NCBI GenBank assembly: GCA_003141895.1
Contig: PLNT01000043.1
Span: 20,813 to 84,812 of the forward strand
DNA length: 64,000 bases
Source of the DNA: Bacteroidales bacterium
GTDB lineage: Bacteria; Bacteroidota; Bacteroidia; Bacteroidales; VadinHA17
Direction of reading: 5' to 3'
This document shows, in pieces, positions 1,751-51,141 of the stretch; the first letter of the stretch is position 1, and every line of letters begins with the position of its first letter. The notes beneath the pieces were generated by a model. The model searched no databases and was not told where the DNA came from. It saw nothing but the letters and a program-made list of their open reading frames with translations. Position numbers and translations under genes: made by a program.

Positions 1751-1829
1751 TTACCCCCTTCCCATCCTTCCCCCAAGGGGGAAGGCGTATCAAAACCTTT
1801 CCCCCTTGGGGGAAAATGAAAGGGGGTAA
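1751..1829 (+). repeat. Family A GC-rich structured intergenic element, copy 1
   Basis: The outer stem is TTACCCCCTT...AAGGGGGTAA. It encloses two perfect hairpins, CCTTCCCCC-AA-GGGGGAAGG and TTTCCCCC-TT-GGGGGAAA. Near-identical copies lie at 6796, 15464 and 50887. Confidence 0.85.
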
Positions 1830-1919
1830 AATTAAAAATATAAAACATAATTTATTACCAATTTTCTGAAGTGTTGTGCTTATTGGATTTCAAGTTTTTT
1901 CATTAATAAATTAATATAT

Positions 1920-3530
1920 ATGGCAGAATTTATTTACGAAAAACCGATTCAGCTTGGGAAGGATACCACAAGGTATAAACTTCTGACAAAAGAATATGTA
2001 AAGGTTGTTGAAGAAGGAGGCAGGAAAATACTTACAATTGATCCAAAAGGTCTGGAAATCCTTGCTAAAAAAGCAGTTTCTGAAATTTCCTTTTACTTTC
2101 GGACCACTCATCTTGAAAAACTTGCATTGATTCTTGACGATCCCGAAGCAACCGATAATGATCGTTTTGTTGCCTATATGTTGCTCCGTAATGCCGTAGT
2201 GAGTGCAGATGAAGATCTGCCATCGTGCCAGGATACAGGCACTGCAATAGTCATTGGAAAAAAAGGCGAGGACGTTCGCACAGGCGGCAAGGATGCCGGG
2301 CACTTATCCAAAGGCATATTTGAAACTTATAAGGAGAAAAACCTCAGATACTCACAGGTAATTCCATTCTCCATGTTTGAGGAAAAGAATACCGGAACTA
2401 ATCTGCCGGCGCAGATTGATATATATTCAACTGAAGGAAGATCGTATGAATTTCTATTCATTACAAAAGGAGGAGGATCTGCGAATAAGACTTTCCTTTA
2501 TCAGCAATCCAAATCATTGTTGAATGAAGAGTCACTGACAAAATTCGTCAAGGATAAGATTAAGGAACTTGGTACATCGGCATGTCCTCCATATCACCTG
2601 GCGATCGTTATCGGAGGGACTTCAGCTGAGGCAACACTTAAAACAGTTAAGGAGGCTTCTGCAGGCTATCTTGATCATCTTCCTTTTACCGGTAATGCAA
2701 ACGGCCGGGCTTTCCGCGATATTGAATGGGAAAAGAAAATTGAAAAAATTTGTCAGGAGTACGGTGTCGGTGCCCAATTTGGCGGGAAGTATTTTGTTCA
2801 TGATGTGAGGGTTATCAGATTACCACGTCATGCTGCTTCGTGTCCGGTTGGAATGGGTGTCAGCTGCAGTGCGGACAGGAATATTAGGGCTCATATTACA
2901 GAGGAAGGAATTTTTATCGAAGAACTTGAAAAGAATCCATCACGTTTTATGCCGGCTAAGGCTCCGGAACTGGAAAAACCTGTAGAAATTGATCTCGATC
3001 GGCCCATGAAAGATGTACTGGCTGAGTTGACAAAATATCCGGTCAAAACAAGATTGAATCTTAGCGGAACGCTTATTGTTGCGCGCGATATTGCTCATGC
3101 AATGATTAAAAAAATGCTGGATGAAGGTAAGCCGATGCCCGAGTATTTTAAAAACCATCCGATATATTATGCAGGCCCGGCAAAGACTCCTGAAGGAATG
3201 CCATCAGGTAGTTTCGGCCCGACCACAGCTGGCCGGATGGATCCGTATGTTAATCTTTTCCAGAGTCATGGCGGATCATTAATTATGCTCGCAAAAGGTA
3301 ACCGGACACGGCAGGTGATCGAAGCATGCAAAAAATATGGCGGATTCTATCTGGGATCAATCGGTGGACCAGCTGCCATCCTTGCTGCTGAAAATATAAA
3401 ATCGGTGGAACTTGTCGATTTTGAAGAACAGGGAATGGAGGCAATCCGCAAGATAAGGGTTGAGAATATGCCTGCATTTATACTTACCGATGATAAGGGG
3501 AACGACTTTTTTGATGAATACAATAAGTAA
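1920..3530 (+). CDS. fumB: class I (Fe-S) fumarate hydratase, fused alpha/beta form
   Basis: 536 aa. '[12 protein letters not shown]' in the N-terminal catalytic region and '[13 protein letters not shown]' in the C-terminal domain are typical of FumA/FumB-type enzymes. Confidence 0.9.
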
Positions 3531-3641: not shown

Positions 3642-5072
3642 CTATTTGATTTTTTCAATAATAAATATATCGTGCCTGTCGAGATCACGCCAGTATTTAA
3701 GAGAGGTTTTTCTTACAAGTTCCCAATAGATATTATTATCAAGGCCATTAACAAAATTTATATCTTTCAGATCTGAAATAATCTTCTCTTCTATCTGCGA
3801 TTTAAGAGTTAATCTAATTTTCCGGTTCATATATGTAAATTCAGCTGATGGATTAGGAGGAATTTCATTTACTACCGTAAATAACCCATGTCCGGTAGTT
3901 GAACCTGTGCTGACCTGCAAACCGTCATTCATGCAGCTCAGCGGAGGATATGATCCAGCAAATGAAGTTGTATTGAACTCGTCAACTCCGGTATTAAAAT
4001 ATTCTCTTGCTCTGATACCCATTTTAACTCCAATGATGGAAAAAACACCTAGCTGACGATGTAACTCATTGGTAATTACTGATGATATCCACTCATCAGT
4101 ACCATATTTCTTAATGATTTCCGTGACAAAAGGTATCACGTCAGCAGAATAAAAAGATGAATCCATCGGAAACGATTTAATAACCTGATTTTTTTCAGCA
4201 GTTTCTCCTGCCAGCAATTTCAATACACTTTCGCGGAGTAAAGGGATATTTTCAGTGGGGCTTACAAAATAATCAGCTGTTGTATTGTATCGGAAAAGTT
4301 CAGGATAGTGTAAATAGACCGGAACCATTTCGTCAATTGCAGAATAGAGTAACTTACGGTTTTTTGATTTCTCATTCCGGAAGAATTCCGAGAATCTTGT
4401 TGCATATATTGTGGGAATTTCAGAGATAGATTTTATCATTAAATCGTTATAGAACGAGTCTTCCTTTAAGCTTATTACAGACTTAACAGGGATTTCAGCT
4501 TTCATTATTTTTTCAACAGCTGAAATATCAACCTGATAGTTAAAATGATTTTTGTCTTTTGGTCCGTTAGAACTCCAGATTATTTCCTTCACCTGTCGTT
4601 TGAAGTCGGGTACCTCTTTCATTGCCTGAGCAACAGTTGACATTCCTCCCAGGCATATAAAGCTCACCTTTGTTTTTTCAAATGACAGTACTTCTTTAAT
4701 TACACTTACGCAATCAGGAGCATTTTCCTCACTTAAATCATCTTCTTTACCCCACATAGTATTTAAGGGATCTGTATATTCTGGAGACTTGAACTTGCTG
4801 TTTTTATTAATTCCAACCGGAATACCTTCATGCCAGAAGGAGTTAAGGAGGCTTTTTACTTTTATATATACATTTTGTGTACTCAGGGCACCCGGGGAGA
4901 TTGTTATTGCAAGAACCCTGACATCGGGTGAAGCAAGAAGCAATGTGATTGCCCTGATATCCTCAATACCTCCGTCGGTATCTATTATTACGTAATGAGT
5001 TGGTTTCCAGGGATGTGAAAAAAGTGTAAGATTCAGAGCAATACATATAATTAATATCAGGAGTCTTTTCAT
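3642..5072 (-). CDS. secreted fusion protein: nucleoside hydrolase-like N-domain plus FmdE-like C-domain
   Basis: Signal peptide 'MKRLLILIICIALNLTLFS'. 'VIIDTDGGIEDIRAI' resembles the IUNH DxDxxxDD motif. The C-terminal 'GVKMGIRAREYF...LSCMNDGLQVSTGSTTGHGLFTV' resembles the FmdE-family core. Confidence 0.6.
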   Translation of the reverse strand: MKRLLILIICIALNLTLFSHPWKPTHYVIIDTDGGIEDIRAITLLLASPDVRVLAITISPGALSTQNVYIKVKSLLNSFWHEGIPVGINKNSKFKSPEYTDPLNTMWGKEDDLSEENAPDCVSVIKEVLSFEKTKVSFICLGGMSTVAQAMKEVPDFKRQVKEIIWSSNGPKDKNHFNYQVDISAVEKIMKAEIPVKSVISLKEDSFYNDLMIKSISEIPTIYATRFSEFFRNEKSKNRKLLYSAIDEMVPVYLHYPELFRYNTTADYFVSPTENIPLLRESVLKLLAGETAEKNQVIKSFPMDSSFYSADVIPFVTEIIKKYGTDEWISSVITNELHRQLGVFSIIGVKMGIRAREYFNTGVDEFNTTSFAGSYPPLSCMNDGLQVSTGSTTGHGLFTVVNEIPPNPSAEFTYMNRKIRLTLKSQIEEKIISDLKDINFVNGLDNNIYWELVRKTSLKYWRDLDRHDIFIIEKIK

Positions 5073-5163: not shown

Positions 5164-6693
5164 ATGAAACGATTTATATTATGGTTCATTCCAGGTCTTC
5201 TTGTTGGAGCCCTGATTATACTTGGTGCAGGAAAAGCACTGCAGGTGACATCCACTAATACATACTGTGTCTCCTGTCATATTCATCCGATGGCAGATTT
5301 TTCATGGAAGAAATCTATACATTATGATACCCGGTCGGGATACAGGGTTGCCTGCATCGAATGCCATCTTCCTCCCAAAGGTCATGGTTATCTCTGGGCA
5401 AAAGGTAAAACAGGTCTGCGCGATCTATGGAGTAAATGGACAAAAGATTCAGCTTCATTTAACTGGTCCGACAGAAGTCATCTTGAAGTTGCCCGAAATT
5501 ATGTGTATGAAAGCAGTTGCATAAAATGTCACGAGAATCTTTTCCCTGCAAAGCTTTCAAAAGCTGGTGAAGATGCTCATCTTTACTATACACAAACAAA
5601 AAAAACCGACGAACTGAATTGTATCAACTGTCATCTGAATGCCGGACATTTTATTGAAGGTTATACGCACGGAAGTAATTCAACATTTGGAAATACATCT
5701 TCAGCCGCAAAAGAAATATATACCGAGCCGGCAAAAGTTTCTGAATTTAAAAGCTTCACTGAGAGCATTCCAAAATCCTCTGTCTCTTTTAACATGGTAG
5801 CTATTCCGGGAGGGACTTTCCATTTAGGCAGTCCACTTTCCGAACCATTCAGGAAAGATGATGAAGGGCCTGTCAGGGAAGTTCGTCTGAGTCCGTTTTT
5901 CATGGCTGAGATTGAAGTTTCATGGGATGAATACCTTGCATTCTATGTACAGACAGCAGCTGAAGGCCGATCAACTGATACCGAAGGTCTGAGAAAAAAC
6001 AAAGCACTGGAAACTGATGCAATTTCCGGTGCAACTCCGCCTTACGGTCAGCCTGATCAGGGCTGGGGTCTGGGAAAAAGACCTGCTATCTCATTTTCTT
6101 TCCATGCGGCTGAGACCTATTGTAAATGGCTCAGTAAAGTCACCGGTAAGAATTATCGACTCCCGACCGAAGCTGAGTGGGAGTATGCCTGCAGGGCAGG
6201 ATCAGATGGACCCTATTTTTTCCCGGGAAATCCGAAGAAATTTGAAAAGACCGGATTAAGAGCAAAGCTTTCTAAAAATGATACAACAGTCATTAATACT
6301 TATGTTGTTTATAAGGGTAATAGTCCTGCAAAAACACAGCCTCCTGAAAGGGTTAAACCTAATCCATTCGGATTAATTAATATGACCGGGAACGTGGCAG
6401 AGTTTTGCGCCGATTGGTATCAGCCTGATGCTTACTCACGATATCCTTCCGGTGCCATAAATGATCCAAAGGGACCCTCTGAAGGAACTGAACATGTAAT
6501 TAGAGGCGGTTCCTTTCAGAGTTCGGCAGGTTATGTCAGAAGTGCATCACGCGACTATACAAAAACAGCGGCATGGTTAAAAACTGACCCTCAGATGCCA
6601 AAGAGCATATGGTGGTATTCCGATTGTTTCAATGTCGGTTTCAGAGTTGTTTGTGATTTTGATGAGAAAACCGGGAATATAAAAAAGGATTAG
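5164..6693 (+). CDS. membrane-anchored NapC/NirT-type tetrahaem cytochrome c fused to an FGE/SUMF1-like (sulfatase-modifying-factor fold) domain
   Basis: N-terminal TM helix followed by four CxxCH motifs (CVSCH, CIECH, CIKCH, CINCH). The C-terminal half carries 'MVAIPGGTFHLGS', 'YRLPTEAEWEYACRAG', 'GNVAEFCADWY' and 'RGGSFQSS...GFRVV', all typical of the FGE-sulfatase fold. Confidence 0.8.
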   Translation: MKRFILWFIPGLLVGALIILGAGKALQVTSTNTYCVSCHIHPMADFSWKKSIHYDTRSGYRVACIECHLPPKGHGYLWAKGKTGLRDLWSKWTKDSASFNWSDRSHLEVARNYVYESSCIKCHENLFPAKLSKAGEDAHLYYTQTKKTDELNCINCHLNAGHFIEGYTHGSNSTFGNTSSAAKEIYTEPAKVSEFKSFTESIPKSSVSFNMVAIPGGTFHLGSPLSEPFRKDDEGPVREVRLSPFFMAEIEVSWDEYLAFYVQTAAEGRSTDTEGLRKNKALETDAISGATPPYGQPDQGWGLGKRPAISFSFHAAETYCKWLSKVTGKNYRLPTEAEWEYACRAGSDGPYFFPGNPKKFEKTGLRAKLSKNDTTVINTYVVYKGNSPAKTQPPERVKPNPFGLINMTGNVAEFCADWYQPDAYSRYPSGAINDPKGPSEGTEHVIRGGSFQSSAGYVRSASRDYTKTAAWLKTDPQMPKSIWWYSDCFNVGFRVVCDFDEKTGNIKKD

Positions 6694-6795
6694 AAAACGT
6701 TTTTATTATTTGGGGATTCCTTGCTAACTCTTCAAACGACAATTTAACCGATAAACAGCTGTTTATCAGCCAAAGACTTCCTTGTTTTTAATTAA

Positions 6796-6876
6796 TTACC
6801 CCCTTCCCAACCTTCCCCCAAGGGGGAAGGAGTGGATCAACCTTTTCCCCCTTGGGGGAAATAAGAAAGGGGGTAA
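6796..6876 (+). repeat. Family A GC-rich structured intergenic element, copy 2
   Basis: Same outer stem and two inner hairpins as 1751-1829. Only the inter-hairpin spacer differs. Confidence 0.85.
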
Positions 6877-7006
6877 AAGCCAAAAAAAGAAATTAAAAGT
6901 GTCATTAATATTGGATTCCAAAATTGGATATTGATTCCCGCTAATGATATCAGCGTTAAAAATCCTTAAATGGAATTGTTAATTTGCTTTTTTGAAAGTC
7001 TATGTT

Positions 7007-7014
7007 TACATTTG
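7007..7014 (+). promoter_or_regulatory. candidate Bacteroidota -7 promoter element (TAnnTTTG)
   Basis: TACATTTG lies 62 nt upstream of the ATG at 7076. This is a motif match only. Confidence 0.3.
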
Positions 7015-7075
7015 ATTACATTCAAAACTAACTTAAAGAATAATATATTTATCAGTTGCTTAAACCTTATCTAAT

Positions 7076-8443
7076 ATGAAAAAATCAAGTATTTCGAGGC
7101 GTAATTTTCTTGGCAAAGCAGCTACAGTAGGCATGGCAGGAGTAATAGTTCCTTCCATTATTACAAGTTGTTCCCGCGAACCCAGGAAAGTAGTTCAGAT
7201 ACCAACCATGCTTGACCAGGCACCTGACGGCCCGGTTATTAAAGCCGGAGTTATAGGTTGTGGTGGTCGCGGAACAGGAGCAGCAATCAATTTCTTAAGT
7301 GCCGGACCAAATCTTAAGATTGTTGCTTTAGGTGACACATTCCAGGACAGGATCGATTCATGCAGGGCAGAGATTCTAAAACAAAAAGGACAGGACGTTC
7401 CTCTTGACAAGTGCTTTGTTGGTTTCGACGCTTATCAGAAAGTACTTGATGCCGGTGTTGATCTTGTTATTCTTGCTACACCGCCTTTCTTCCGTCCCGA
7501 TCATCTTGCAGCAGCAATACAGGCTAAAAAACATGTTTTTGCAGAAAAACCGGTTTGTGTTGACCCTGTTGGGGCAAGATCGGTGATGGCTTCTTCACAA
7601 AAGGCTAAAGGGATGGACCTAAGCATAGTTACAGGCACTCAGCGCAGGCATCAGCGCGACTATATTGCCACATGGCAGCAGGTGGGTCAGGGTACAATTG
7701 GAGATATAATGAGTGGTAATGTTTACTGGAATGGCGGTAAACTCTGGCATCGTGATCCAAATGCAAAATGGAGCGAAATGGAATATATGATCCGTAACTG
7801 GGTTAACTGGACCTGGCTTTCAGGAGATCATATAGTAGAACAACATGTACACAATCTGGATGTAATGAACTGGTTTACAGGTACACATCCGGTAAAAGCA
7901 GTTGGATTTGGTTCACGTTTGCGCCGTGTTACTGGTAATCAGTATGATAATTTCAGCGTCGACTTTGAATTTGAAGACGGCAGACATTTTCACAGTATGT
8001 GTCGCCAGATTAATGGTTGTGCAGAAAATGTATCTGAAAGGATACAGGGCTCAAAAGGATCTGCATTTTTATCGCAGAGTCAGGATGTTTATATGAAGGA
8101 TCTTAAGGGAAATGTTATCTGGAAATATGATTATCCTGTCGATGAGACCGGGAAACCTTCAAAATCTAAAATGGTGGATCCATATGTACAGGAACATATC
8201 GACCTTGTTACAGCGATTCGTACAAACAAACCAATTAATGAGGCTGAAAATACAGCAATCTCAACAATGATGGCAATTATGGGTCGAATATCAGCTTACA
8301 CTGGGAAAGAAACAACTTATGAGGAAATGATGAACTCCGACCTTAAGCTTGGGCCAAAAGTATTTGTTCTTGGTCAGGTTGATGTCGACAAAAGTATACC
8401 AATAGCAGGATTGGCTTATGTACCTGAAAACGCAACAAAATAA
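7076..8443 (+). CDS. Tat-exported Gfo/Idh/MocA family oxidoreductase
   Basis: Twin-arginine signal 'SRRNFLGKAATVGMAG', Rossmann motif 'GVIGCGGRGTG' and 'EKPV' are typical of the family. Confidence 0.85.
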   Translation: MKKSSISRRNFLGKAATVGMAGVIVPSIITSCSREPRKVVQIPTMLDQAPDGPVIKAGVIGCGGRGTGAAINFLSAGPNLKIVALGDTFQDRIDSCRAEILKQKGQDVPLDKCFVGFDAYQKVLDAGVDLVILATPPFFRPDHLAAAIQAKKHVFAEKPVCVDPVGARSVMASSQKAKGMDLSIVTGTQRRHQRDYIATWQQVGQGTIGDIMSGNVYWNGGKLWHRDPNAKWSEMEYMIRNWVNWTWLSGDHIVEQHVHNLDVMNWFTGTHPVKAVGFGSRLRRVTGNQYDNFSVDFEFEDGRHFHSMCRQINGCAENVSERIQGSKGSAFLSQSQDVYMKDLKGNVIWKYDYPVDETGKPSKSKMVDPYVQEHIDLVTAIRTNKPINEAENTAISTMMAIMGRISAYTGKETTYEEMMNSDLKLGPKVFVLGQVDVDKSIPIAGLAYVPENATK

Positions 8444-8448
8444 TTAAA

Positions 8449-9393
8449 ATGGATTATTCAAGGAGAAATTTCATAAAGAAAAGCACTGCAACAGGAGCTG
8501 CAATTTTAGCCGCTCCTGCAGTTTTTGGCAATATTTCTTTGCCAAAGAGACAGAAAGCAGCCGATGCAACGGAACCATTCAAACTGAAATATGCTCCGGG
8601 ATTTGGCATGTTTCACGAACATGCTGGTGATGACCTTATCGATAATATCAGGTTTTGTCACGACATGGGCTTCAGAGCAATGTTCGATAATGGTTTGATG
8701 ACGCGGCCCCTTGCCGATCAGACAAAGATAGCCAATGAGATTCATCGGCTGGGGATGGACCTTGGTCCCTTTGTTTTGTATGCTGATTTTTCAGTGACCT
8801 CATTTGTACTTAACAAAGAGGATATCCGACAAATGCTGGTAAGCAAGATGAAAGAAGGGGTGGAGGTTGCTAAACGGACAGGTGTTAAATGGGCCCTGGT
8901 TGTGCCCGGCAGGTACGATGAAAGACTCCCTCGCGATTATCAGACAGCAAACGTGATTGACAACCTAAGATATTGCTGTGATATTATGGAACCTGCCGGC
9001 CTGACAATTGTACTTGAGCCATTGAATACTATTCACGATCATCCAGGGTTATTCCTTAACGGAATACCACAGGCTTATGCAATTTGCAGAGCAGTTAACA
9101 GGCCAGTTTGTAAGATTGTTGACGATATTTATCATCAGCAGATTACTGAAGGGAACCTGATTCCAAATATTGAAGCTGCCTGGAGTGAGATTGCTGCTTT
9201 CCATCTGGGTGATAACCCGGGAAGAAATGAACCGACAACCGGGGAAATCAACTTCAAAAATGTTTTCAAATATATCTACAGCCGTAAATATGATGGTGTA
9301 CTGTGTATGGAACATGGAAACCACGATAAAGGTAAAGAGGGAGAACAAAAGGTAATTCAGGCATACCGCGAATGCGATAGCTTTGAAATATAG
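8449..9393 (+). CDS. Tat-exported xylose-isomerase-like TIM-barrel protein (hydroxypyruvate isomerase-like sugar phosphate isomerase/epimerase family)
   Basis: Twin-arginine signal 'SRRNFIKKSTATGAAILAAPA'. Motifs 'LEPLN', 'DDIYHQQITEGNL', 'HLGDNPGRNEPTTGEINF' and 'LCMEH' are Hyi-like metal-site motifs. Confidence 0.8.
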   Translation: MDYSRRNFIKKSTATGAAILAAPAVFGNISLPKRQKAADATEPFKLKYAPGFGMFHEHAGDDLIDNIRFCHDMGFRAMFDNGLMTRPLADQTKIANEIHRLGMDLGPFVLYADFSVTSFVLNKEDIRQMLVSKMKEGVEVAKRTGVKWALVVPGRYDERLPRDYQTANVIDNLRYCCDIMEPAGLTIVLEPLNTIHDHPGLFLNGIPQAYAICRAVNRPVCKIVDDIYHQQITEGNLIPNIEAAWSEIAAFHLGDNPGRNEPTTGEINFKNVFKYIYSRKYDGVLCMEHGNHDKGKEGEQKVIQAYRECDSFEI

Positions 9394-9397
9394 TTAA

Positions 9398-9502
9398 ACC
9401 TCACCCCAACCCCTCTCCCAAGGGAGAGGGGCTTAAAATTATTTACGGGCTTTGTCCTTTTACTCCCCTTCTCCCCTGGGAGAAGGGGTAGGGGGATGAG
9501 GT
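9398..9502 (+). repeat. Family A-like element with the same architecture but different sequence
   Basis: The outer stem pairs ACCTCAcCCC with GGGGGATGAGGT. It encloses two perfect 10-bp hairpins, CCCCTCTCCC-AA-GGGAGAGGGG (9410-9431) and CCCCTTCTCC-cctg-GGAGAAGGGG (9465-9488). It starts 4 nt after the upstream stop codon. Confidence 0.75.
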
Positions 9503-9533
9503 AAATGATATATGGTTAATAAATACTCTTCTT

Positions 9534-10637
9534 ATGAAAAAATTCTTATTCCCAGTCCTTGTATCTGTTCTTATTATTACGACATCAGTATCATCTTTCA
9601 GCCAGCCAATAAGATTATTTGCCGGCAGATATACCGACAGCGGAGGGAAGGGACTGTATCTCTTTGATTTAAACCGTGAATCCGGAACTTTTAAAGAGTT
9701 ATCTGAGGCGGAAGCCGGTCCAAACCCATCATATTTCTGTCTTTCAAAAAAGAAAGGGTTGATTTACGCTGCAAATGAGGTTATGGAATTCAATGGTGTC
9801 AACGGCGGAGGTGTAACTGCATTAAAATATGACCCGAAAAATGGAAGTATTGAAAAGATCAAAGATTTATTAGTGCCTGATGGCGGACCCTGTTTTATAT
9901 CGATAACACCAGATGAAAGCTATTTATTACTGGCCAATTATTCAAGCAGTTCAATTTCTGTTGTAAAGTTAGACGCCGATGGAATTCCAGACAGTGTTAC
10001 TGATAAAATAGCGTTCCCTGAAAATGACGGAAAGGTTTCTCATCCTCATATGATTTCTTTTGGTCCGTCAGGGAAAGTTTATCTGACTGATCTTGGGCTT
10101 GACAGGATTGTGATCTATGATTTTGATAATGGGACAGGGAAACTAAGCCAAAGTGGCATTATCAACTTTCCGAAAGGAACAGGCCCACGACATTTTGTAT
10201 TTAATTCCAGCGGAACAAAAATGTACGTTATCTGTGAGCTTAATTCAACAATATCGGCCCTGGATGTTGATAAAGATGGTGGGTTAAAATTAATTCAGAC
10301 TCTGTCAGCTCTTGCGGAAGATTTTAAAGGTGAAAGTAATTGTGGTGACATTCACCTGGGCAACAACAAGCAGTATCTTTACGGATCAAACAGGGGTGAA
10401 AACACAATTGTTGTATTCAAAATTGAAACTGACGGGAAATTGAAACTTGCCGGAAGAACTTCATGCGGAGGTGTCTGGCCAAGAAATTTCGTTATCGATC
10501 CGTCTGGAAAATATCTTCTTACAGCAAATCAGAAATCCGGGAATATTGTTCTCTACAAAATCGATTCGAAAAGCGGCCTTCCTGTTGCGACTTCAAAAGA
10601 GTTTAAAATTGATTCACCTGTTTGCCTGAAATTTTAG
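9534..10637 (+). CDS. secreted 7-bladed beta-propeller lactonase (Pgl/YbhE-type 6-phosphogluconolactonase family)
   Basis: Signal peptide. Repeated blade motifs and 'GPRHFVFNSSGTKMYVICELNSTISALDVD' and 'PRNFVIDPSGKYLLTANQKSGNIVLYKID' are typical of this lactonase family. Confidence 0.8.
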   Translation: MKKFLFPVLVSVLIITTSVSSFSQPIRLFAGRYTDSGGKGLYLFDLNRESGTFKELSEAEAGPNPSYFCLSKKKGLIYAANEVMEFNGVNGGGVTALKYDPKNGSIEKIKDLLVPDGGPCFISITPDESYLLLANYSSSSISVVKLDADGIPDSVTDKIAFPENDGKVSHPHMISFGPSGKVYLTDLGLDRIVIYDFDNGTGKLSQSGIINFPKGTGPRHFVFNSSGTKMYVICELNSTISALDVDKDGGLKLIQTLSALAEDFKGESNCGDIHLGNNKQYLYGSNRGENTIVVFKIETDGKLKLAGRTSCGGVWPRNFVIDPSGKYLLTANQKSGNIVLYKIDSKSGLPVATSKEFKIDSPVCLKF

Positions 10638-10661
10638 TATACTTGTTTTAAACCAAGGCTC

Positions 10662-10785
10662 CGCTCGGAATGACATTTACTGAGGCTTAGCGTAGTTAGA
10701 GGAAGGAAGGAGCATTGAGTCGCGCACGCGATTCAATGCTCCTTCCTTCCTACGTCCAAATAAAAATGACGTGTCATTCCGAGCG
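10662..10785. repeat. Family C nested palindromic element, copy 1
   Basis: The outer inverted repeat pairs CGCTCGGAATGACA (10662-10675) with TGTCATTCCGAGCG (10772-10785). The central ~24-bp hairpin GGAAGGAAGGAGCATTGAGTCGCG / CGCGATTCAATGCTCCTTCCTTCC spans 10701-10750. Confidence 0.8.
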
Positions 10786-10918
10786 AAGCGAGGAATCCCC
10801 TAATCTTATTAATTGTTTGAAAGAAAAAATTTCTTTGTGATACTTTGTGCCTTTGTGCTTGGTGGCAATGTTCTTGTTTCTCAATTAATGTATATTTGCC
10901 CGGATTTAATAAAAAATT

Positions 10919-12146: not shown

Positions 12147-12302
12147 TTAACCACAAAGCATGACCCCCTGCCGCTGAGCGGTTGTACCCTTTCCTCATCA
12201 GGCTCGGAAGGGGGACTAATTCGGTATACTTGATGAAATTATTGATTGACTGATAATTTACCCCCATTTAGTGGGAAGGGGGGGCGTGACCTTTGCGGTT
12301 AA
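12147..12302. repeat. Family B GC-rich element bounded by 12-bp terminal inverted repeats (MITE-like)
   Basis: TTAACCaCAAAG (12147-12158) pairs with CTTTGCGGTTAA (12291-12302), matching 11 of 12 positions. The interior contains GGGGGACTAATTCGG (12210-12224), which is also found at 57216 (+) and 59880 (-). The 19-mer CTTTGCGGTTAATTGTTTT is repeated at 59958. Confidence 0.7.
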
Positions 12303-12402
12303 TTGTTTTTTTCTTTCTGTAGTTTTTCTGAGCCGTCCTTCGGATTCTATTTGTAAATCGGAAATTTCTCCGTATAATTATTATCAAAATCTTTCCATTT
12401 TT

Positions 12403-13956
12403 ATGAACCGCCATAATTTTGTTGAAGAATTAGTAAAAAAATCAGATTCAGTCTGGGATCTTATAATAATAGGAGGAGGAGCCACCGGTCTGGGAATAGC
12501 TCACGATAGTGCGTCGCGGGGCTACACCACACTATTACTGGAACAATCTGATTTCGCTAAAGCCACTTCATCGAGAAGTACCAAATTGGTTCATGGCGGA
12601 GTTAGATATATGGCCCAGGGCGATCTTTTATTGGTTATGGAAGCATTGCATGAACGAGGATTATTGCTAAAAAATGCACCTCATCTTACTTTTAATCAGG
12701 AATTCGTTATTCCTGTTTATACCTGGTGGGATGTTTGCAAATATACTGCCGGACTTAAATTTTATGATCTCCTGTCAGGCCGCTTGAGTATGGGGAAATC
12801 GTATTATATCGGCAGGGAAAAGACTATGAGTCGATTACCACTTTTAAAGTCCGATAGACTGAAAGGAGGAGTTGTATACCATGATGGACAATTTGACGAT
12901 TCACGCCTGGCTTTTGCCCTGGCGCAGTCGAGTGCTGATAAAGGCGCTATTGTCCTCAATTATTTTCAGGTTATAAGTCTTCTCAAGGACAACCAGGGTA
13001 AAATTAATGGCCTGACTGCAAGAGATAATGTCTCAGGGAAAGAACATGTTTTAAAAGCTAATCTGGTAATTAACGCTACTGGCGTATTTGCTGACTCGGT
13101 TGCCAGAATGGATAACCCTGAAGCAAAACCAACACTCAGACCAAGTCAGGGGGTTCATATTGTACTCAACAGGTCCTTCCTTCAAAGCGATTCAGCCATT
13201 ATGATACCTAAAACAGATGATGGGAGAGTTTTATTTGCTATTCCATGGTATAATGAAGTTGTAATTGGTACAACAGATACTCCGCTTGAAAATATAAGTC
13301 TTGAACCCATTGCTCTGGAGAAGGAAATCGATTTCATTTTGCAGACGGCAGGGAGATACCTGATCAAGCCTCTTTGCCGGACAGATATTCTGAGCATATT
13401 TGCCGGGTTAAGGCCTCTGGCTGCTAACAGTAAAAATCCTTCTTCAACAAAAGAAGTATCCCGAAGGCATAAAATCACATTATCATCCTCAGGACTTCTG
13501 ACAATTATCGGGGGCAAATGGACCACCTACCGCCTGATGGCTGAGGAGATATTAAACAGAGCGATTAAGTCTGGTTTACTTCCCAGTGCCAAATGTATCA
13601 CTTCGGATCTTAAACTAACTAAAAATGGTGTTGAATCTGGGAGGTTACGCATTTATGGAGATGATTTCATTGAGATCAAAAAAATTTTAACTGACAATCC
13701 AGCTTTTGGAATACCTCTTAATCCCGATTTGCCATATACCAGAGCTGAGATTCTTTGGATCTGCAGAAACGAAATGCCAATACATATCGATGATGTTCTT
13801 GCTCGCCGCACCCGGTCCTTGTTTCTGAATGCAAAAGCTAGCGCTTCCATTGCACCAGAAGTAGCGGAAATAATGGCAACTGAATTAGGGTATGACAAGG
13901 AGTGGCAGAAGGAAGAGATAAAATCATACAATGAACTTGTGAAAAACTATTTATAG
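12403..13956 (+). CDS. glpD: FAD-dependent glycerol-3-phosphate dehydrogenase
   Basis: '[22 protein letters not shown]' FAD fold plus 'KLVHGGVRY'. It sits directly upstream of glpK. I chose the ATG at 12403 because the track's GTG at 12271 lies inside the repeat element. Confidence 0.85.
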
Positions 13957-15463: not shown

Positions 15464-15543
15464 TACCCTCTTCCCGGCCTTCCCCCAAGGGGGAAGGAGT
15501 AGCGCTATCATTTCCCCCTTGGGGGAAATAAGAAAGGGGGTAA
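15464..15543 (+). repeat. Family A GC-rich structured intergenic element, copy 3
   Basis: Both inner hairpins are identical to the other copies. The outer left arm is slightly degenerate (TACCCTCTT). It starts 8 nt after the glpK stop codon. Confidence 0.8.
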
Positions 15544-15649
15544 AAAAAATAAGATAATGAGATTCCTAATTTGATCGTAAATTCATGCTTTTTAGGCACT
15601 TAACAATAAAGGAAAATAATTTTTATAGCTAATTTAATAATTAGATGAC

Positions 15650-23928: not shown

Positions 23929-25449
23929 TTAATTTAAGCTCGGGATCCTAAAACTCCACGCTATTTTACATGGCCGTTTCGACTCATCCTGTAATTCTGC
24001 AGGAAGTAAAATTTCCAAACCTGTTTTCTTATTATACTTCCATTCCAAAGGCTTTGCCCAGCCCAACATATATATTTCGGAACCTTGTTCAGGCTCTACT
24101 GTTCTTAGTTTGAGCCGTTGACCTGGCCAACTACGACTGATGGCATAAATGGTTTGTCTGTCCTTTGTGCGGGTATAACGGATAGTATCGCCCTCTTTCC
24201 AAAGATTGCCCACGCGCGGACGGGTAGCGTAAATGGCCTCCCCGTTGACTTTTAACCAGGCCCCCGTCTCTTTAATTGCCTGAATTACCCTCGGGTCGAA
24301 GCGACCAGTGGCATCTGGGCCGATACCCATCATGAAGTTACCTCCTTTTGCAACAATATCCGTCAGACTATTGATAATCCAGGCAACGCCTTTGAAATCA
24401 TCGTTTTTAACGTACGAAAAAGATTTGCCAAAGGGGTAAATTACAAACCATGGCATATCAGTGTTCTCCTGACTGCCGGGAATAAACCCTTCAGGTGTAT
24501 AATAGTCGCCATAATTGCCAATACCCCGTGCGCGGAACATTACCTCGGGCTGTATTTTACGGAAATCTTTCATTTCCTGGCGCATCTGTGGCCACACTTT
24601 CTTGCCCAACCACTGATCGAGGCATATCATATCAATCTTGCCATAATTAATAAGCAGTTGAGTAAGTTGTTCACGGTGATAGGCCATCATCCGATCTTCC
24701 TCATTAGGGGTTGGGTTTTGTACCATGATGTAAGGTGTGTTTTCTCGCACCTCAATGCCGTAAAGTTTTGGATGTTCCTTAACATCAGGTATCTGTAACG
24801 GATGATAGTTGTAAGGTCTGAAATCGGCATTGTACCAATCCGGATGCGAATAATAAAGATCAATCTTAAGTCCATATTTATGGGCGGCATCGCAAAGTTC
24901 TTTAATTACATCGCGGTGAAATGGTGTTTCCATGATGCTGTAAGCCAGGTCGCAATCTTCCAGGACAGGACCTCTGGGGGCAATCCAGTTGACCCTCTTT
25001 TTAACCCGGGCTTTGGTATCAAACATTGAGAAGCCTTCGTGGTGCATAGTAGTGATGGCGAACATTTTAATGCCATTATCACTGAACAGTTTCATCCATT
25101 CCTCAGCATTAAAACCGGTCGGGTTCCAGGTCTTATAAAGTTCCTGGTAGGCTTGTTTCTTTTCATTTGAGAGCGTAAGAAATGGCCATGATTCATTACC
25201 TTGCCCTGTGATCGAGTACAATCCCCAATGAATACGTACCCCGAACTTCATATCGCGGAATGCCTCAATAGTGGCTGGCGAAGGATGGTGATAACCGGAG
25301 TCAGGCTTATCTTCGATCCAATCTTTGACACGGAGGTAATGAACATCATTCTTAGGCAACGTGTAGTTCAATGCAGGAACGGACTCTTGTGCAGAAGTAA
25401 ATGCACTGATTGTTATGAGAAAAATAATAGATAGAACTATTGTTTTCAT
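23929..25449 (-). CDS. alpha-L-fucosidase (GH29), secreted
   Basis: 'GVRIHWGLYS' and 'TTMHHEGFSMFDT' are GH29 signatures. The signal peptide begins at the second Met ('MKTIVLSIIFLITISAFTSAQ'), so I chose 25449 as the start. Confidence 0.85.
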   Translation of the reverse strand: MKTIVLSIIFLITISAFTSAQESVPALNYTLPKNDVHYLRVKDWIEDKPDSGYHHPSPATIEAFRDMKFGVRIHWGLYSITGQGNESWPFLTLSNEKKQAYQELYKTWNPTGFNAEEWMKLFSDNGIKMFAITTMHHEGFSMFDTKARVKKRVNWIAPRGPVLEDCDLAYSIMETPFHRDVIKELCDAAHKYGLKIDLYYSHPDWYNADFRPYNYHPLQIPDVKEHPKLYGIEVRENTPYIMVQNPTPNEEDRMMAYHREQLTQLLINYGKIDMICLDQWLGKKVWPQMRQEMKDFRKIQPEVMFRARGIGNYGDYYTPEGFIPGSQENTDMPWFVIYPFGKSFSYVKNDDFKGVAWIINSLTDIVAKGGNFMMGIGPDATGRFDPRVIQAIKETGAWLKVNGEAIYATRPRVGNLWKEGDTIRYTRTKDRQTIYAISRSWPGQRLKLRTVEPEQGSEIYMLGWAKPLEWKYNKKTGLEILLPAELQDESKRPCKIAWSFRIPSLN

Positions 25450-25492
25450 TATTTTAAAGCTTGAAATTGTTAACAAATTGATTTTTTATTAT

Positions 25493-26815
25493 TTAACCGA
25501 CTAAATTAACTAAGTGTCCCCCATCCTGATTAACATAATCCTGCAATTCTTTGTTACTTACGAGTGGACCCGTTAAAAAAAGAACAATAGCTAATCCAAC
25601 GAGGGAAATGAGTCCGTATCCAATAAAAACCGCATTATAGGCTATTGCATAATTAAAATGAGTTGACAGGTTTTTTATTGCTATGCCTGATACTGACTGG
25701 AAAACCACACCTCCCAGGCCGGCTCCGACACTTGCAACGCCCCATACTGAAGCTGTAGCGCTTTTTGGTACTACATCTGCCGGAAATGCCATAGTGTTAG
25801 CTGTATATGCCGCATACCCAAATCCTGCAATAGCCAGTACAATTAGTGCACCTGTAGGGCCGGTTATAACTAACGGTCCAAATAACAGGGATAATGCCAT
25901 AATTAACCCAAAAATGCCAACAGATATTTTCCGCGCTTTGGGGATTTCAATTCCTTTTTTAATTATAAATTGAGTGAACAGACCACCTAAAATATTTCCA
26001 AAATCAGCAACAATAAAAGGGAACATGGCAAACCATCCTATCTTAGCCAGGTTCCATCCATATACATCGGCAAGATATCTGCCGATCCAAAAAGTAATGA
26101 AATACCAAACCGGATCCATGAAAATCTTTGATAAAGTTAGACCAGAAACAAATCTATTCTTTAACAACTTTAAAGGAGGAATAATTCTGGCTTTTGCCTC
26201 TTTGACAACCTTTTTTGGGGTATAATAAATAAACCAGAATGAGGCCAGCCATATATACCCCAATACTCCAACAACCAGGAAGGTTGCCTGCCATCCATAA
26301 GTCGTTCCCAACCAGGCAATTAATGGAGGAGCAACAACAGCCCCTACAGAAGCGCCACTATTAAAAATTCCTGAGGCAGTTGAACGTTCATCTGGAGGGA
26401 ACCATTCTGAAGTGAGTTTTATTGCCGCGGGCCAGTTTCCTGCTTCTCCGATTCCTAATAAAAACCGGAAAAATCCAAATTGAAAAGGAGACATTGCCAG
26501 GGCATGCAGTATTCCTGCAGTTGTCCAGAATCCCATAGTTAATGAATACCCAATACGTGTGCCCAGTTTATCAATAGCAAAACCTGAAAAGGCATTGGAA
26601 ATCATATAAGCTATGAAAAACGCCGATGCTATATAACCAAATGCATCATCAGGGATAATTCCCCGTAAATATCCGTTAGCAGTCAGGTAAGTAAATGATA
26701 ATCTGTGCAAATAATTTAATACTGTTGCAACAAAGGCAAAAGATATCATTACCCAGCGCATTCTGGAGGATCTGCTTTGCACTATAAAGTTTTCATTTCC
26801 TGAATTTTTTCTCAT
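25493..26815 (-). CDS. MFS transporter (ACS/hexuronate-like subfamily)
   Basis: About 12 predicted TM segments. 'LNYLHRLSF' and 'GLGEAGNWPAAIK'-like motifs are typical of ExuT-type MFS transporters. Confidence 0.8.
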   Translation of the reverse strand: MRKNSGNENFIVQSRSSRMRWVMISFAFVATVLNYLHRLSFTYLTANGYLRGIIPDDAFGYIASAFFIAYMISNAFSGFAIDKLGTRIGYSLTMGFWTTAGILHALAMSPFQFGFFRFLLGIGEAGNWPAAIKLTSEWFPPDERSTASGIFNSGASVGAVVAPPLIAWLGTTYGWQATFLVVGVLGYIWLASFWFIYYTPKKVVKEAKARIIPPLKLLKNRFVSGLTLSKIFMDPVWYFITFWIGRYLADVYGWNLAKIGWFAMFPFIVADFGNILGGLFTQFIIKKGIEIPKARKISVGIFGLIMALSLLFGPLVITGPTGALIVLAIAGFGYAAYTANTMAFPADVVPKSATASVWGVASVGAGLGGVVFQSVSGIAIKNLSTHFNYAIAYNAVFIGYGLISLVGLAIVLFLTGPLVSNKELQDYVNQDGGHLVNLVG

Positions 26816-26900
26816 TAATTATTTTTGACAAGGGTAATGTACCGAATTCGCTAATCGACCATTTCCTGTAATGTATATTCTTGCTCTCTTTCCCATTTAC

Positions 26901-28025
26901 TTAAATTCTCCCATCATAGTCAAGACGGTCATATTCAGGCATCAAAGGAAATTTTACAGCCTTCCCATCTCTTTGAGAGCGGTATATCGCAGTAAAAATC
27001 TCTACGGTCACCCGCCCTTCCTCTCCGCTAACCATCGGTTTTCTTCCCTCAATCAATGCATTTATAAAATCTTCAATCTGCAACATATGAAAGTATTCCA
27101 TGGGATTGACACTATTAAAAAAATCTGAATCTTCTTTTATCCAATCTTTTAGTTTATTTTCTTCTCCGGGAATCGTCCATAGGTCATTTACCGGCGGTTC
27201 CAGAATACTTGTCATACCAGCTATGAACATTGCACCTCCATCCGTTTGAACACCTACGGAAGCACCGTTATCTCCATGTATATGAACTTTTCCGTATATG
27301 CCGGGTTTTTGCGAATTACTTACAATAATATTCCCCACTCCACCATTTTTAAATTTCAGTATTGCCAGTGCAGTGTCTTCAACTTCAATATATGGATGGT
27401 TCATATTTTTCCAGATACCATATATTTCTTCAATTTCGCTGCCCATAAACCATTGCAGTAAATCTAACTGGTGAGGAGCCTGATTGACCAGGACACCGCC
27501 TCCTTCGCCTTTCCAGGTTCCTCTCCATGGATCACTTTCGTAGTAGGCCTCGTTGCGCCAGCCAAACATAAAAACTGTTCCAAGAGCAGGCTTTCCAATC
27601 TTACCGGAATCAATTGCTTTTTTTAGACGGATACATGGAGAATAGAAACGTCTTTGCGAAATTATCGCGATTTGTTTACCTGTTTCTTTGGCCGTAGAAA
27701 GCATCGCATCGCAATCCGCCAGCGAAGAGGCCAATGGTTTCTCAATAAGTACATTGGCGCCTGCTCTTAGCGCTTCAATTGCTGAGGCTCTATGTGCAGG
27801 ATGTGGAGTACAAATAATTACCATATCCAACCCTTCCTTAGTGACCATTTCTGTAACATTAGTATATGCATTTACTCCATATCTGGCAGCATACTCCTTA
27901 GATTTTTTTTCATCTCTGCTACAAACCGCAGTAAATGCCGATTTTGTTATTGTTTTTAATGCAGCGGCATGGATAGCCGCTACTTTTCCACATCCTATAA
28001 TTCCGGTTTTTAATTTATCGTTCAT
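26901..28025 (-). CDS. cytoplasmic Gfo/Idh/MocA family oxidoreductase
   Basis: 'LKTGIIGCGKVAAIHAAAL' Rossmann motif plus 'EKPLA'. No signal peptide. Confidence 0.85.
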   Translation of the reverse strand: MNDKLKTGIIGCGKVAAIHAAALKTITKSAFTAVCSRDEKKSKEYAARYGVNAYTNVTEMVTKEGLDMVIICTPHPAHRASAIEALRAGANVLIEKPLASSLADCDAMLSTAKETGKQIAIISQRRFYSPCIRLKKAIDSGKIGKPALGTVFMFGWRNEAYYESDPWRGTWKGEGGGVLVNQAPHQLDLLQWFMGSEIEEIYGIWKNMNHPYIEVEDTALAILKFKNGGVGNIIVSNSQKPGIYGKVHIHGDNGASVGVQTDGGAMFIAGMTSILEPPVNDLWTIPGEENKLKDWIKEDSDFFNSVNPMEYFHMLQIEDFINALIEGRKPMVSGEEGRVTVEIFTAIYRSQRDGKAVKFPLMPEYDRLDYDGRI

Positions 28026-28037
28026 GCAAAATAGTTT

Positions 28038-29066: not shown

Positions 29067-29133
29067 TTGAAAAAAATTAAGGCACTTTTAAACCCGGGTT
29101 TATCAATGCCGTAGTTCATGATTAATTTATTAA

Positions 29134-30147: not shown

Positions 30148-30246
30148 CCTCCTTTTTTAAAAATGACATTGTGAATTTATTTACTGACTTCAAATTTATA
30201 TATTGATACTTTTGGTTAGTCTTATATTTTGCATTAATACGAATAT

Positions 30247-37476: not shown

Positions 37477-37653
37477 ATGGGCAATTTAGGCATGACAGAA
37501 ATATTACTGATATTAGTAGTAGTAGTGTTGCTTTTTGGTGGGAAAAAGATTCCTGAACTTATGAAAGGCATTGGTCAGGGTATGAAGGAGTTTAAGAAAG
37601 CTTCAAAGTATGATCCTGCTGAAGACGACAAGGAACTGGCACACAAAGACTAA
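37477..37653 (+). CDS. tatA: twin-arginine translocase subunit TatA/E (58 aa; absent from the ORF track because it is under 60 aa)
   Basis: My translation is '[58 protein letters not shown]'. It shows the TatA signature: a TM helix, 'FG.KK.PEL' and an amphipathic 'G.G..EFKKA'. A strong terminator follows. Confidence 0.8.
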
Positions 37654-50886: not shown

Positions 50887-50965
50887 TTATTCTTTTTTAC
50901 CCCCTTCCTAACCTTCCCCCAAAGGGGAAGGAAAAATCAGACCTTTCCCCCTTGGGGGAAAATGA
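50887..50965 (+). repeat. Family A GC-rich structured intergenic element, copy 4
   Basis: The outer stem TTACCCCCTT...AAGGGGGTAA is perfect. The inner hairpins are CCTTCCCC(C)-AAA-GGGGAAGG and TTTCCCCC-TT-GGGGGAAA. It lies 25 nt after the sprA stop codon. Confidence 0.85.
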
Positions 50966-51141
50966 AAGGGGGTAAATCATAAACCAAGAATTTACTAGTC
51001 TGAGTGAACCGTCTGTTGAGTGTAATCAAGGTTCACTTTCAGAAATCGAATGAAACATAGGGATGTTTCTTCCTTCCTGAAAATCAGGCGTAATGTGATA
51101 AAATAAAGAGGATTACATGTACATTTATCGAAGCATTTTTC

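Follow-up and report, generated by a model that had tools for sequence, protein, structure and literature searches.

A formylglycine-generating-enzyme-like domain as putative flavin carrier for Tat-exported Gfo/Idh/MocA dehydrogenases

In a 64,000-nucleotide stretch of a Bacteroidales genome (VadinHA17 lineage; assembly GCA_003141895.1, contig PLNT01000043.1, positions 20,813 to 84,812), hereafter the window, four consecutive plus-strand genes at 5164-10637 encode exported proteins (Table 1). Gene 1 encodes a tetrahaem cytochrome fused to a domain resembling formylglycine-generating enzyme (FGE), gene 2 a dehydrogenase of the Gfo/Idh/MocA family (hereafter Gfo) with a twin-arginine translocation (Tat) signal, gene 3 a xylose-isomerase-like triosephosphate isomerase (TIM) barrel, and gene 4 a beta-propeller lactonase. 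We found that an FGE-like protein together with a Tat-exported Gfo is a conserved unit shared by four phyla, and that the FGE-like domain, the conserved partner of the dehydrogenase, probably carries a covalently attached flavin, as judged from its sequence motif. We consider it about 60% probable that the products of genes 1 and 2 are the two components of a periplasmic dehydrogenase that is connected to the respiratory chain, with gene 3 very probably working alongside them. The four genes, with the domains and export signals proposed in an initial annotation of the window, were confirmed by open reading frames (ORFs), Pfam, and motif searches.

Pairing of FGE-like and Gfo genes

Loci related to the module were collected from two directions. 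A fusion-anchored scan used one genome per species and an alignment of the fusion that included members 40-48% identical, yielding 80 loci that were scored by phmmer against all window proteins. A reverse, Gfo-anchored search compared a Gfo alignment with metagenome contigs. From the fusion side, a Gfo orthologue lay directly 3' on the same strand in 12 of 13 tetrahaem-fusion loci, and the contig of the 13th ends 2 bp past the match. Gfo scores were 447-668 bits in eleven of these 12 loci and 179 bits for a fragmented ORF in an Acidobacteriota locus (L019). The two genes were at most 210 bp apart in ten loci and ~620-660 bp apart in L019 and L022. Such fusions occur in Porphyromonadaceae, Prolixibacteraceae, Draconibacterium, Tannerella, Cryptobacteroides, Rikenella, and an Acidobacteriota metagenome-assembled genome (MAG). 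Haem-less FGE-like proteins sharing the C-terminal motif DPQxPKSxWW were found in Flavobacteriaceae, Sphingobacterium, Pedobacter, Algoriphagus, Chitinophagaceae, and Saprospiraceae, as well as in Planctomycetota, Verrucomicrobiota, and Acidobacteriota. For subfamily members other than the tetrahaem fusions, a Gfo orthologue (~180-400 bits) was adjacent in 24 of 43 loci. In contrast, none of the 24 lowest-scoring loci, which hold generic FGE-sulfatase proteins, had an adjacent Gfo.

Viewed from the dehydrogenase, 39 of 56 testable Gfo-anchored loci had an FGE-like gene as the immediate upstream neighbour of Gfo, in the same orientation. The pairing spans Bacteroidota, Acidobacteriota, Planctomycetota, and Verrucomicrobiota, and its flanking genes are completely different from locus to locus. 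Adjacency that is kept in four phyla amid unrelated flanks, yet never seen with generic FGE, implies that the gene order is not due to chance. Because haem-less FGE-like proteins also pair with Gfo, it is the FGE-like domain rather than the haem that is the conserved partner. Where an FGE-like paralogue has no Gfo beside it, no other gene consistently took the partner's place. Two Gfo paralogues can follow a single fusion gene, either in tandem (L016:6248-8978) or ~0.4-1.4 kb apart (L135:4064-7215, L022:2499-6690), suggesting that one relay may serve several dehydrogenases.

Three further loci types were seen beside this pattern. A tandem Gfo pair occurs at L148:3378-6225 with no fusion gene in view. 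At L132:7325-9901, the pair is followed directly by a second, distant Tat-type Gfo and then a ThuA-domain protein (PF06283), a further case of a Gfo with a partner gene. A second distant Gfo is also present in L141 and L146.

Gene 1 begins with a hydrophobic membrane anchor, read from the sequence as MKRFILWFIPGLLVGALIILGAG. Pfam assigned residues 6-163 to Cytochrom_NNT (PF03264) at 89.8 bits, against a gathering score of 24.1, and residues 210-464 to FGE-sulfatase (PF03781) at 151.4 bits. The Pfam scan of gene 1 returned the cytochrome and FGE-sulfatase families only, with no known flavin-binding domain around the motif described below. The four CxxCH motifs start at residues 35, 64, 119, and 153, and none of their eight Cys and four His varies in an alignment (A1) that extends down to 40% identity. 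Scores against the NCBIfam equivalogs NrfH (66.5 vs 134) and NapC (49.5 vs 310) fell far under the cut-offs. Homologues of gene 1 form at least 120 clusters at 77-89% identity and thus a strongly conserved family. Uncultured Bacteroidales are the source of the nearest relatives of the window's proteins (77-90% identity).

The FGE-like domain could be aligned to Thermomonospora curvata FGE (6s07, 103.8 bits) and to PvdO (81.7 bits). However, the copper-binding catalytic Cys pair of FGE has no counterpart in gene 1, where QSSAGYV aligns with LCHESYC of the T. curvata enzyme, and the conserved columns of the FGE-like subfamily contain neither a Cys pair nor an alternative metal site. The recurrent neighbours of the FGE-like/Gfo pair are Gfo itself, the TIM barrel, and ApbE, with no sulfatase family among them. 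Gene 1 as a true FGE, or as an anaerobic quinone-linked FGE, was therefore rejected, given that the catalytic cysteines are gone and a sulfatase partner is missing. The domain has instead been joined to cytochromes more than once: one or two PSCyt1 c-type cytochrome domains precede it in Verrucomicrobiota and Acidobacteriota, and the NapC/NirT tetrahaem anchor does so in anaerobic Bacteroidia and some Acidobacteriota. Fusion of the same domain to two unrelated cytochrome types points to electron transfer. In three fusions, those of L019 (the Acidobacteriota MAG) and of L133 and L135 (unassigned metagenome contigs), just three of the CxxCH motifs are canonical, and each has an adjacent apbE; the first haem site in L019 reads CDQFCH, which is CxxxCH spacing.

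Gene 2 encodes an NAD(P)-type dehydrogenase whose Tat signal, SRRNFL (RRNF at residue 8), scored 18.5 on TIGR01409, and the SRRNFI signal of gene 3 scored 22.2, both above the cut-off of 16.7 and as the initial annotation had read them. The protein further contains a lipobox-like ITSC at residues 29-32, a Rossmann motif GCGGRG at 61-66, and EKP at 157-159, of which the latter two are invariant in the Gfo alignment (A2). The orthologous subfamily retains 38-64% identity across phyla, and a twin-arginine signal is present in nearly every partner Gfo. Nearly all Gfo partners of tetrahaem fusions have a lipobox-like Cys after the Tat region, in place of which an A-x-A type cleavage site is seen in the partners of haem-less versions. 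This comparison was made by eye because the automated lipobox expression was contaminated by the Rossmann 'LIGC' in haem-less lineages. The two kinds of signal fit a complex at the membrane surface, and from its lipobox the gene 2 protein is probably lipid-anchored.

The nearest solved relatives of gene 2 are inositol dehydrogenases (4n54, 86.5 bits with the profile). It nevertheless scored below the curated models for IolG (TIGR04380, 64 vs a cut-off of 355) and for the BT_2158 glycoside 3-dehydrogenase (NF058561, 26.8 vs 750), and no curated family model claims it. Structures of GH109 enzymes and of glucose-fructose oxidoreductase (GFOR) were absent from the PDB sequence matches of Gfo even at E <= 1. 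Identity as a GH109-type glycosidase was rejected on the grounds that the similarity is undetectable.

Predicted flavinylation and proposed electron route

The flavin transferase ApbE recognises D-x-x-[S/T]-G-A-[S/T] and links flavin mononucleotide (FMN) to the final residue (PMC12052999). An exact match lies within the FGE-like domain of gene 1 (Table 1), the only one among 11 window proteins tested that has the motif. At the aligned site, 53 of 56 tetrahaem-fusion proteins carry D-x-x-[ST]-G-[AP]-T, of which 22 are canonical exactly, and 41 of 48 other subfamily members carry D-x-x-[ST]-x-x-[ST], mostly as [ST]RP[TS]. A similar motif occupies this site in only 2 of 26 generic FGE proteins. 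Outside the FGE-like family, the motif was found in none of 122 Gfo orthologues, none of 8 lactonases, and 1 of 27 TIM barrels. The motif of gene 1 must lie outside the cytoplasm, since it is in the same chain as, and C-terminal to, the membrane anchor and the necessarily periplasmic c-haem domain.

Gene neighbourhood points in the same direction. At 24 loci, a homologue of apbE occurs in the flanks (±6-10 kb) around the FGE-like gene, mostly immediately adjacent to it, and for 17 of 130 FGE-like proteins it lies within 800 bp. All ten of the neighbours checked are ApbE by Pfam (PF02424, 219-264 bits). Around the 68 loci that bear the pair, ApbE (FAD:protein FMN transferase, where FAD is flavin adenine dinucleotide) is the second most recurrent family. 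Lineages with divergent motifs tend to retain their own apbE alongside, whereas Bacteroidia with a near-canonical motif and no apbE nearby presumably use the housekeeping ApbE, the enzyme that serves Nqr and Rnf. We also considered whether ApbE acts on Gfo instead and rejected this, as the motif is missing from all 122 orthologues and 6 of the 24 apbE loci have no Gfo above threshold near the FGE-like gene. Taken together, the motif and its linkage predict that the FGE-like domain is very probably a covalently flavinylated relay.

The following route would then apply. Gfo would fold around NAD(P) in the cytoplasm, be exported by Tat, and probably be lipid-anchored at the membrane, where it may oxidise a hydroxyl of a sugar, cyclitol, or polyol. 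Its reduced nicotinamide would be re-oxidised by the FMN that ApbE is predicted to attach at T291 of the FGE-like domain. The flavin would split the hydride and pass single electrons through the four NapC/NirT haems to menaquinone, from which an oxidase or fumarate reductase could receive them. The keto product would then be isomerised or epimerised by the Hyi-type TIM barrel, which is also exported by Tat. In this lineage the core may be adapted to a given substrate by the lactonase and the nucleoside-hydrolase-like protein next to it and, among relatives, by a transporter of the NupG type. Hydride transfer straight from NAD(P)H to haem c is not known to have a good precedent, and a flavin that converts two-electron into one-electron steps removes this problem. 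Electron flow from NAD(P)H (~ -320 mV) to menaquinone (~ -74 mV) is downhill, and the PSCyt1 versions in aerobic lineages are sensible only as electron acceptors. Both thermodynamics and these cytochrome c fusions therefore favour the oxidative direction.

These results revise an earlier proposal that the cytochrome re-oxidises the dehydrogenase. The partnership stands, given its recurrence from both search directions, but the direct haem route with FGE as a passenger is not supported, because the motif and apbE favour a flavin relay. More broadly, we put at slightly better than even odds the proposition that the FGE fold hosts an unrecognised class of ApbE substrates, in which an FMN-tagged FGE-like subunit, whether free, PSCyt1-fused, or NapC/NirT-fused, is dedicated to re-oxidising a family of Gfo/Idh/MocA enzymes that are exported by Tat with NAD(P) already bound.

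Several observations weigh against this route. The FGE fold is not known to bind flavin. NapC/NirT proteins usually draw electrons from quinol, whereas the proposed route would have them reduce quinone. The versions in aerobic Bacteroidota and Planctomycetota have neither haem nor a neighbouring cytochrome gene, and 17 of 56 Gfo orthologues lack an FGE-like gene in the surrounding 6 kb. The window, like the ±10 kb flanks in close relatives, contains no apbE, so that a housekeeping copy must be assumed. Two close relatives carry an insert of ~9 kb between fusion and Gfo (L001:11826-20437, L004:1-9750), and in the present genome the 382-bp spacer that separates genes 1 and 2 contains a strong hairpin and a possible promoter box. 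The fusion (A4) and Gfo (A5) were modelled with AlphaFold2 from 27-sequence alignments of homologues 77-89% identical, but the mean predicted local distance difference test (pLDDT) was only 31.7 and 37.1, respectively, and both models were discarded as unusable. Variant motifs are common, with Arg at position 5 and/or Pro at position 6 (TRPT, SGPT), and in published mutagenesis of the motif, which is limited to G-to-A and A-to-V changes, ~50% flavinylation remained (PMC12052999). Finally, we infer flavinylation, contact between the proteins, electron direction, quinone reduction, and substrate all from sequence and gene neighbourhood. As a separate observation, the ~9 kb inserts contain SusC/SusD, DUF6057, and Tricorn-like genes, and that of L004 also contains an IS1595 transposase.

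Three alternatives deserve comparison with the flavin relay, each of which we regard as unlikely. The first follows the initial annotation in treating the four genes as a glycoside-cleaving oxidation-elimination module, of the 3-keto-glycoside or DgpA/DgpBC type, with direct re-oxidation by the haems and a non-redox role for FGE. Gfo and TIM-barrel pairs of this general kind are established catalysts of such chemistry (PMC8121099), DgpA is among the weak PDB matches of Gfo (41-55 bits), YcjR, a 3-keto-glucoside 4-epimerase, is among the PDB matches of the TIM barrel (60 bits), and the lactonase is akin to the periplasmic gluconolactonase PpgL. However, nothing ties the module specifically to glycoside cleavage. 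Gfo resembles inositol dehydrogenases and falls far short of the BT_2158 model, the top relatives of the TIM barrel are Hyi/OtnI isomerases rather than lyases, there is no DUF1080 hydrolase in the module, and the lactonase is restricted to close relatives. Pairing of Gfo with haem-less FGE-like proteins, the conserved flavinylation motif, and the apbE linkage would all go unexplained.

The second alternative, which we hold to be about equally improbable, reverses the flow, so that menaquinol would reduce the haems, the flavin, and the Gfo cofactor in turn, and the module would reduce an organic terminal electron acceptor. NapC/NirT proteins are typically quinol oxidisers, and the closest functional analogy, electron transfer from CymA to flavinylated urocanate and fumarate reductases, runs this way (PMC8238504). 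Energetics speak strongly to the contrary, as reducing NAD(P) with menaquinol would be steeply uphill and ketone/alcohol couples are well established to be more negative than menaquinone. Moreover, the PSCyt1 fusions of aerobic lineages cannot plausibly reduce NAD(P).

The third is a redox-neutral Gfo that recycles its own cofactor, whether by GFOR-like ping-pong or as a GH109/GH4-like NAD-assisted glycosidase, with the FGE-like domain as a lectin-like binding or anchoring subunit whose motif stays unmodified. Tat-exported Gfo enzymes with non-dissociable NADP have precedent (PMC8121099), and the haem-less versions have no obvious electron outlet. The FGE fold is moreover a C-type-lectin-like fold with no established flavin binding. 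We nonetheless find this explanation hard to credit, since it leaves two independent cytochrome fusions and a recurrent apbE neighbour without a reason, and neither GH109 nor GFOR was among the PDB sequence matches. Coincidental synteny, by which the fusion would serve another periplasmic process and merely lie near the dehydrogenase in this lineage, would suit the findings that the entire fumarase-to-GlpD/GlpK block is syntenic in close relatives and that insertions can part the two genes. It is already disfavoured and very improbable, as adjacency persists across four phyla with unrelated flanks and is absent from generic FGE loci.

Neighbouring genes and window layout

Clustering at 80% Gfo identity reduced the 68 pair-bearing loci to 49 locus clusters. 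The TIM barrel was the sole widely recurrent extra partner, occurring in 23 of the 49 clusters and mostly immediately downstream, and it was present in 23 of 62 Gfo-anchored loci, 11 of these at orthologue level. In the window it starts 5 bp past the Gfo stop codon. The TIM barrel very probably acts together with genes 1 and 2. It scored below the cut-offs of the curated isomerase models for Hyi (108.9 vs 353.45) and OtnI (99.8 vs 325). Against PDB, its profile ranked 3ngf (109.8 bits) and YgbM (91.6 bits) ahead of ketose 3-epimerases, YcjR, and IolI. By sequence, the protein thus resembles Hyi/OtnI-type isomerases rather than glycoside lyases.

The lactonase has a Sec-type N-terminus, judged by eye, and is similar to PpgL (6igb, 136 bits), scoring well below the 6-phosphogluconolactonase equivalogs (171.6 vs a cut-off of 500; 150.5 vs 370). 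It was found in 6 of 62 Gfo-anchored loci and only in close relatives with at least ~70% Gfo identity (L002, L004, L005, L087-L090, L093, and L097). It is therefore a neighbour specific to this lineage, outside the conserved module and with a doubtful link to it. Hence, of the four-gene neighbourhood first proposed, the FGE-like and Gfo pair and the recurrent TIM barrel hold up, whereas the lactonase does not. At ~80% identity, relatives share a syntenic block of fumarase, fusion, (NupG-like), Gfo, TIM barrel, lactonase, (phosphodiesterase), GlpD, and GlpK genes, which is uninformative about function owing to the small evolutionary distance.

Other neighbours offer speculative, lineage-specific hints at the substrate, namely a nucleoside-hydrolase-like/FmdE protein, a NupG-like transporter, and a secreted phosphodiesterase with GlpD. 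The nucleoside-hydrolase-like/FmdE gene occupies the same position, divergent from gene 1, in L001, L018, L093, L104, L120, and L143, which represent four locus clusters, and its product is possibly a lineage-specific accessory of the module. NupG-type (Nuc_H_symport) genes of the major facilitator superfamily (MFS) lie in or beside the module at L002:11577-12791, L005:8688-9899, L040:14323-15582, and L021:2300-4222, and their carriers are Bacteroidales relatives, a Sphingobacterium, and a Gemmatales MAG. In two Flavobacteriaceae (L028, L037), GlpD is near the FGE-like/Gfo pair. The GlpD ORF of the window (12271-13956, plus strand) is listed with a GTG start that adds a 44-residue extension unlike protein, and an internal Met is probably the true start.

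Table 1. Positions of the module genes, their motifs, and other features in the window
Feature	Position	Strand	Details
Gene 1, tetrahaem cytochrome-FGE-like fusion	5164..6693	+	509 aa; transmembrane helix, NapC/NirT ~6-163, linker, FGE-like ~195-509
CxxCH haem c motifs	CVSCH 5266-5280, CIECH 5353-5367, CIKCH 5518-5532, CINCH 5620-5634	+	
FGE-like (C-type-lectin-like) domain	5746..6690	+	Motifs YRLPTEAEWEYAxRA, RGGSF, DPQxPKSxWW
Predicted ApbE site D285-A-I-S-G-A-T291	6016..6036	+	Exact motif match; FMN predicted to be phosphoester-linked to T291
Spacer from gene 1 to gene 2	6694-7075		382 bp; contains the repetitive extragenic palindromic (REP) element, no transporter gene
REP-like 82-nt nested hairpin	6797..6878	.	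-52.4 kcal/mol, z = -4.9 vs shuffles
Gene 2, Gfo/Idh/MocA NAD(P)-type dehydrogenase	7076..8443	+	455 aa; PF01408, PF22725, PF02894
Gene 3, xylose-isomerase-like TIM barrel	8449..9393	+	314 aa; PF01261 AP_endonuc_2, 104.7 bits
Structured hairpin, TIM barrel/lactonase spacer	9398..9500	.	-64.5 kcal/mol, z = -6.4
Gene 4, exported 7-bladed beta-propeller lactonase	9534..10637	+	367 aa; PF10282, 330.4 bits
Large hairpin 3' of lactonase gene	10660..10790	.	Inverted repeat I6, -81 kcal/mol, z = -13.2
Class I fumarase	1920-3530	+	Always just 5' of the fusion gene in close relatives
IU-nucleoside-hydrolase-like + FmdE protein, exported	3642-5072	-	PF01156, PF02663; divergent from gene 1
tatA	37477-37653	+	PF02416, 64.9 bits; component of the export route needed by genes 2 and 3
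MqnC/CofH-type radical S-adenosylmethionine gene	38974-40071	-	Pfam alone cannot split MqnC from CofH

The structured repeats that had been noted after genes 1, 3, and 4 were borne out by their folding energies, and tatA was confirmed at the expected place (Table 1). The 82-nt hairpin belongs to a family (D1) with four copies in the window (1752-1833, 6797-6878, 15464-15545, and 50898-50979), and the large hairpin behind the lactonase gene contains 25-nt arms that are 96% complementary. Nested G/C-tract hairpins of ~82 nt, resembling REP elements or miniature inverted-repeat transposable elements (MITEs), occupy intergenic spacers across the window, which has further very stable intergenic hairpins such as that at 38068-38116. 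A TAnnTTTG box (the Bacteroidetes -7 box) lies 5' of the Gfo gene at 7007 and another at 10891; with 65 such boxes in the window against 68 expected by chance, they are weak promoter evidence. The suggestion of several transcription units is fair for this genome in view of the spacer, hairpin, and box between genes 1 and 2, although in most relatives this gap is only 4-200 bp.

The MqnC/CofH-type gene fits both the use of menaquinone and its synthesis through the futalosine pathway. Together with the fumarase gene it suits a background of menaquinone/fumarate respiration, although this link may be plain synteny. An SprA gene elsewhere in the window marks the organism as a member of Bacteroidota. 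A separate minus-strand cluster at 23929-31293 encodes an alpha-L-fucosidase, an MFS transporter, a signal-less Gfo/Idh/MocA protein, a Zn alcohol dehydrogenase, a CN-hydrolase, and an aldo-keto reductase, and looks like a cytoplasmic route for deoxy-sugar oxidation.

Relation to known systems

No description of the FGE-like/Gfo pairing was found in the searchable literature. In the portions consulted, the flavinylation surveys and a 2025 review make no mention of FGE, sulfatase, or NapC, nor, in their main text, of Gfo. The part of the eLife survey supplement that was consulted has no FGE-sulfatase entry, so an earlier mention cannot be fully excluded. What appears new is the connection of an NAD-type Gfo enzyme, an FGE-fold carrier, and a NapC/NirT anchor, parts that had not been linked before. 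Bacteroidota, Planctomycetota, and Verrucomicrobiota possess very many Gfo/Idh/MocA dehydrogenases that are exported by Tat, and for BT2158 the authors postulated an unidentified second sugar as acceptor (PMC8121099). A dedicated flavin-cytochrome partner would explain, for one large subfamily, how trapped NAD(P)H is re-oxidised. If the flavin relay is correct, it would give at least four phyla a general means of linking the nicotinamide-dependent oxidation of sugars or polyols in the periplasm to respiration, and in anaerobic Bacteroidales it would be a point at which electrons from carbohydrates enter the respiratory chain. A new fold would join the flavinylated redox domains, and widespread annotations such as 'formylglycine-generating enzyme', 'sulfatase modifying factor 1', and 'SUMF1/EgtB/PvdO nonheme iron enzyme' would need correction in this subfamily.

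By curated tests, the module is not a true FGE, BT2158-type, IolG, Hyi, or OtnI system. FGE and its non-catalytic relatives PvdO, NirV, and GldK/PorK share the FGE-sulfatase fold and a periplasmic location, and PvdO and NirV are, like the FGE-like domain, accessory to a periplasmic redox process. The domain differs in that the catalytic Cys pair of FGE is replaced, in that it has no EgtB-like His triad and no sulfatase partner, and in its own DPQxPKSxWW motif and putative flavinylation loop. The N-terminal half of gene 1 is like NapC, NirT, NrfH, and CymA in its anchor helix, four CxxCH motifs, PF03264 match, and link between the menaquinone pool and periplasmic redox chemistry. It differs in its C-terminal 315-residue FGE-like domain and in the proposed flow towards quinone reduction, a direction in which cytochrome cM552 of ammonia oxidisers reportedly also runs.

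In overall purpose, the module would be comparable to the LacABC glucoside 3-dehydrogenase and to pyrroloquinoline quinone (PQQ) glucose dehydrogenase with PpgL, which feed periplasmic sugar oxidation into the respiratory chain with the aid of periplasmic helper enzymes. Their primary cofactor is FAD or PQQ, as opposed to NAD(P) in a Rossmann enzyme here, where the relay is an FGE-like domain predicted to be flavinylated, and LacABC has no sequence relationship to the module. Zymomonas GFOR, Caulobacter aldose-aldose oxidoreductase, and Bacteroides BT2158, whose NAD(P) is non-dissociable, share the Gfo fold, Tat export with cofactor loaded, and periplasmic sugar oxidation, although gene 2 is only distantly related to them, as its scores against the BT_2158 model and the PDB indicate. 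They also share the problem of re-oxidising a bound cofactor where free NAD is absent (PMC8121099). Their cofactor is thought to be regenerated by reducing a second sugar, whereas here a dedicated haem partner with a predicted flavin is encoded next door.

Further parallels are with the ApbE-flavinylated proteins, including NqrC/NqrB, RnfG, NosR, PceC, and the FMN-bind domains of urocanate and fumarate reductases fed by CymA, which are likewise periplasmic and have the same seven-residue motif. Their genes, like those of FGE-like homologues in other phyla but not gene 1 of the window or its close relatives, lie near apbE in many genomes. In contrast to known ApbE substrates, the motif here sits in an FGE-sulfatase fold rather than in FMN_bind, NQR2_RnfD_RnfE, DUF2271, Flavodoxin_4, or FMN_red, and most family members use a variant of it, [ST]GPT or [ST]RP[TS]. 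Catalysis would fall to an NAD(P)-type Gfo/Idh/MocA enzyme instead of a flavoenzyme, and in the window the putative flavin domain is in one chain with a NapC/NirT tetrahaem anchor. Common to the flavinylated systems and, as proposed, to this module are a flavin placed between a two-electron partner and cytochromes or quinone, and its modular use with multihaem cytochromes (PMC8238504, PMC12052999).

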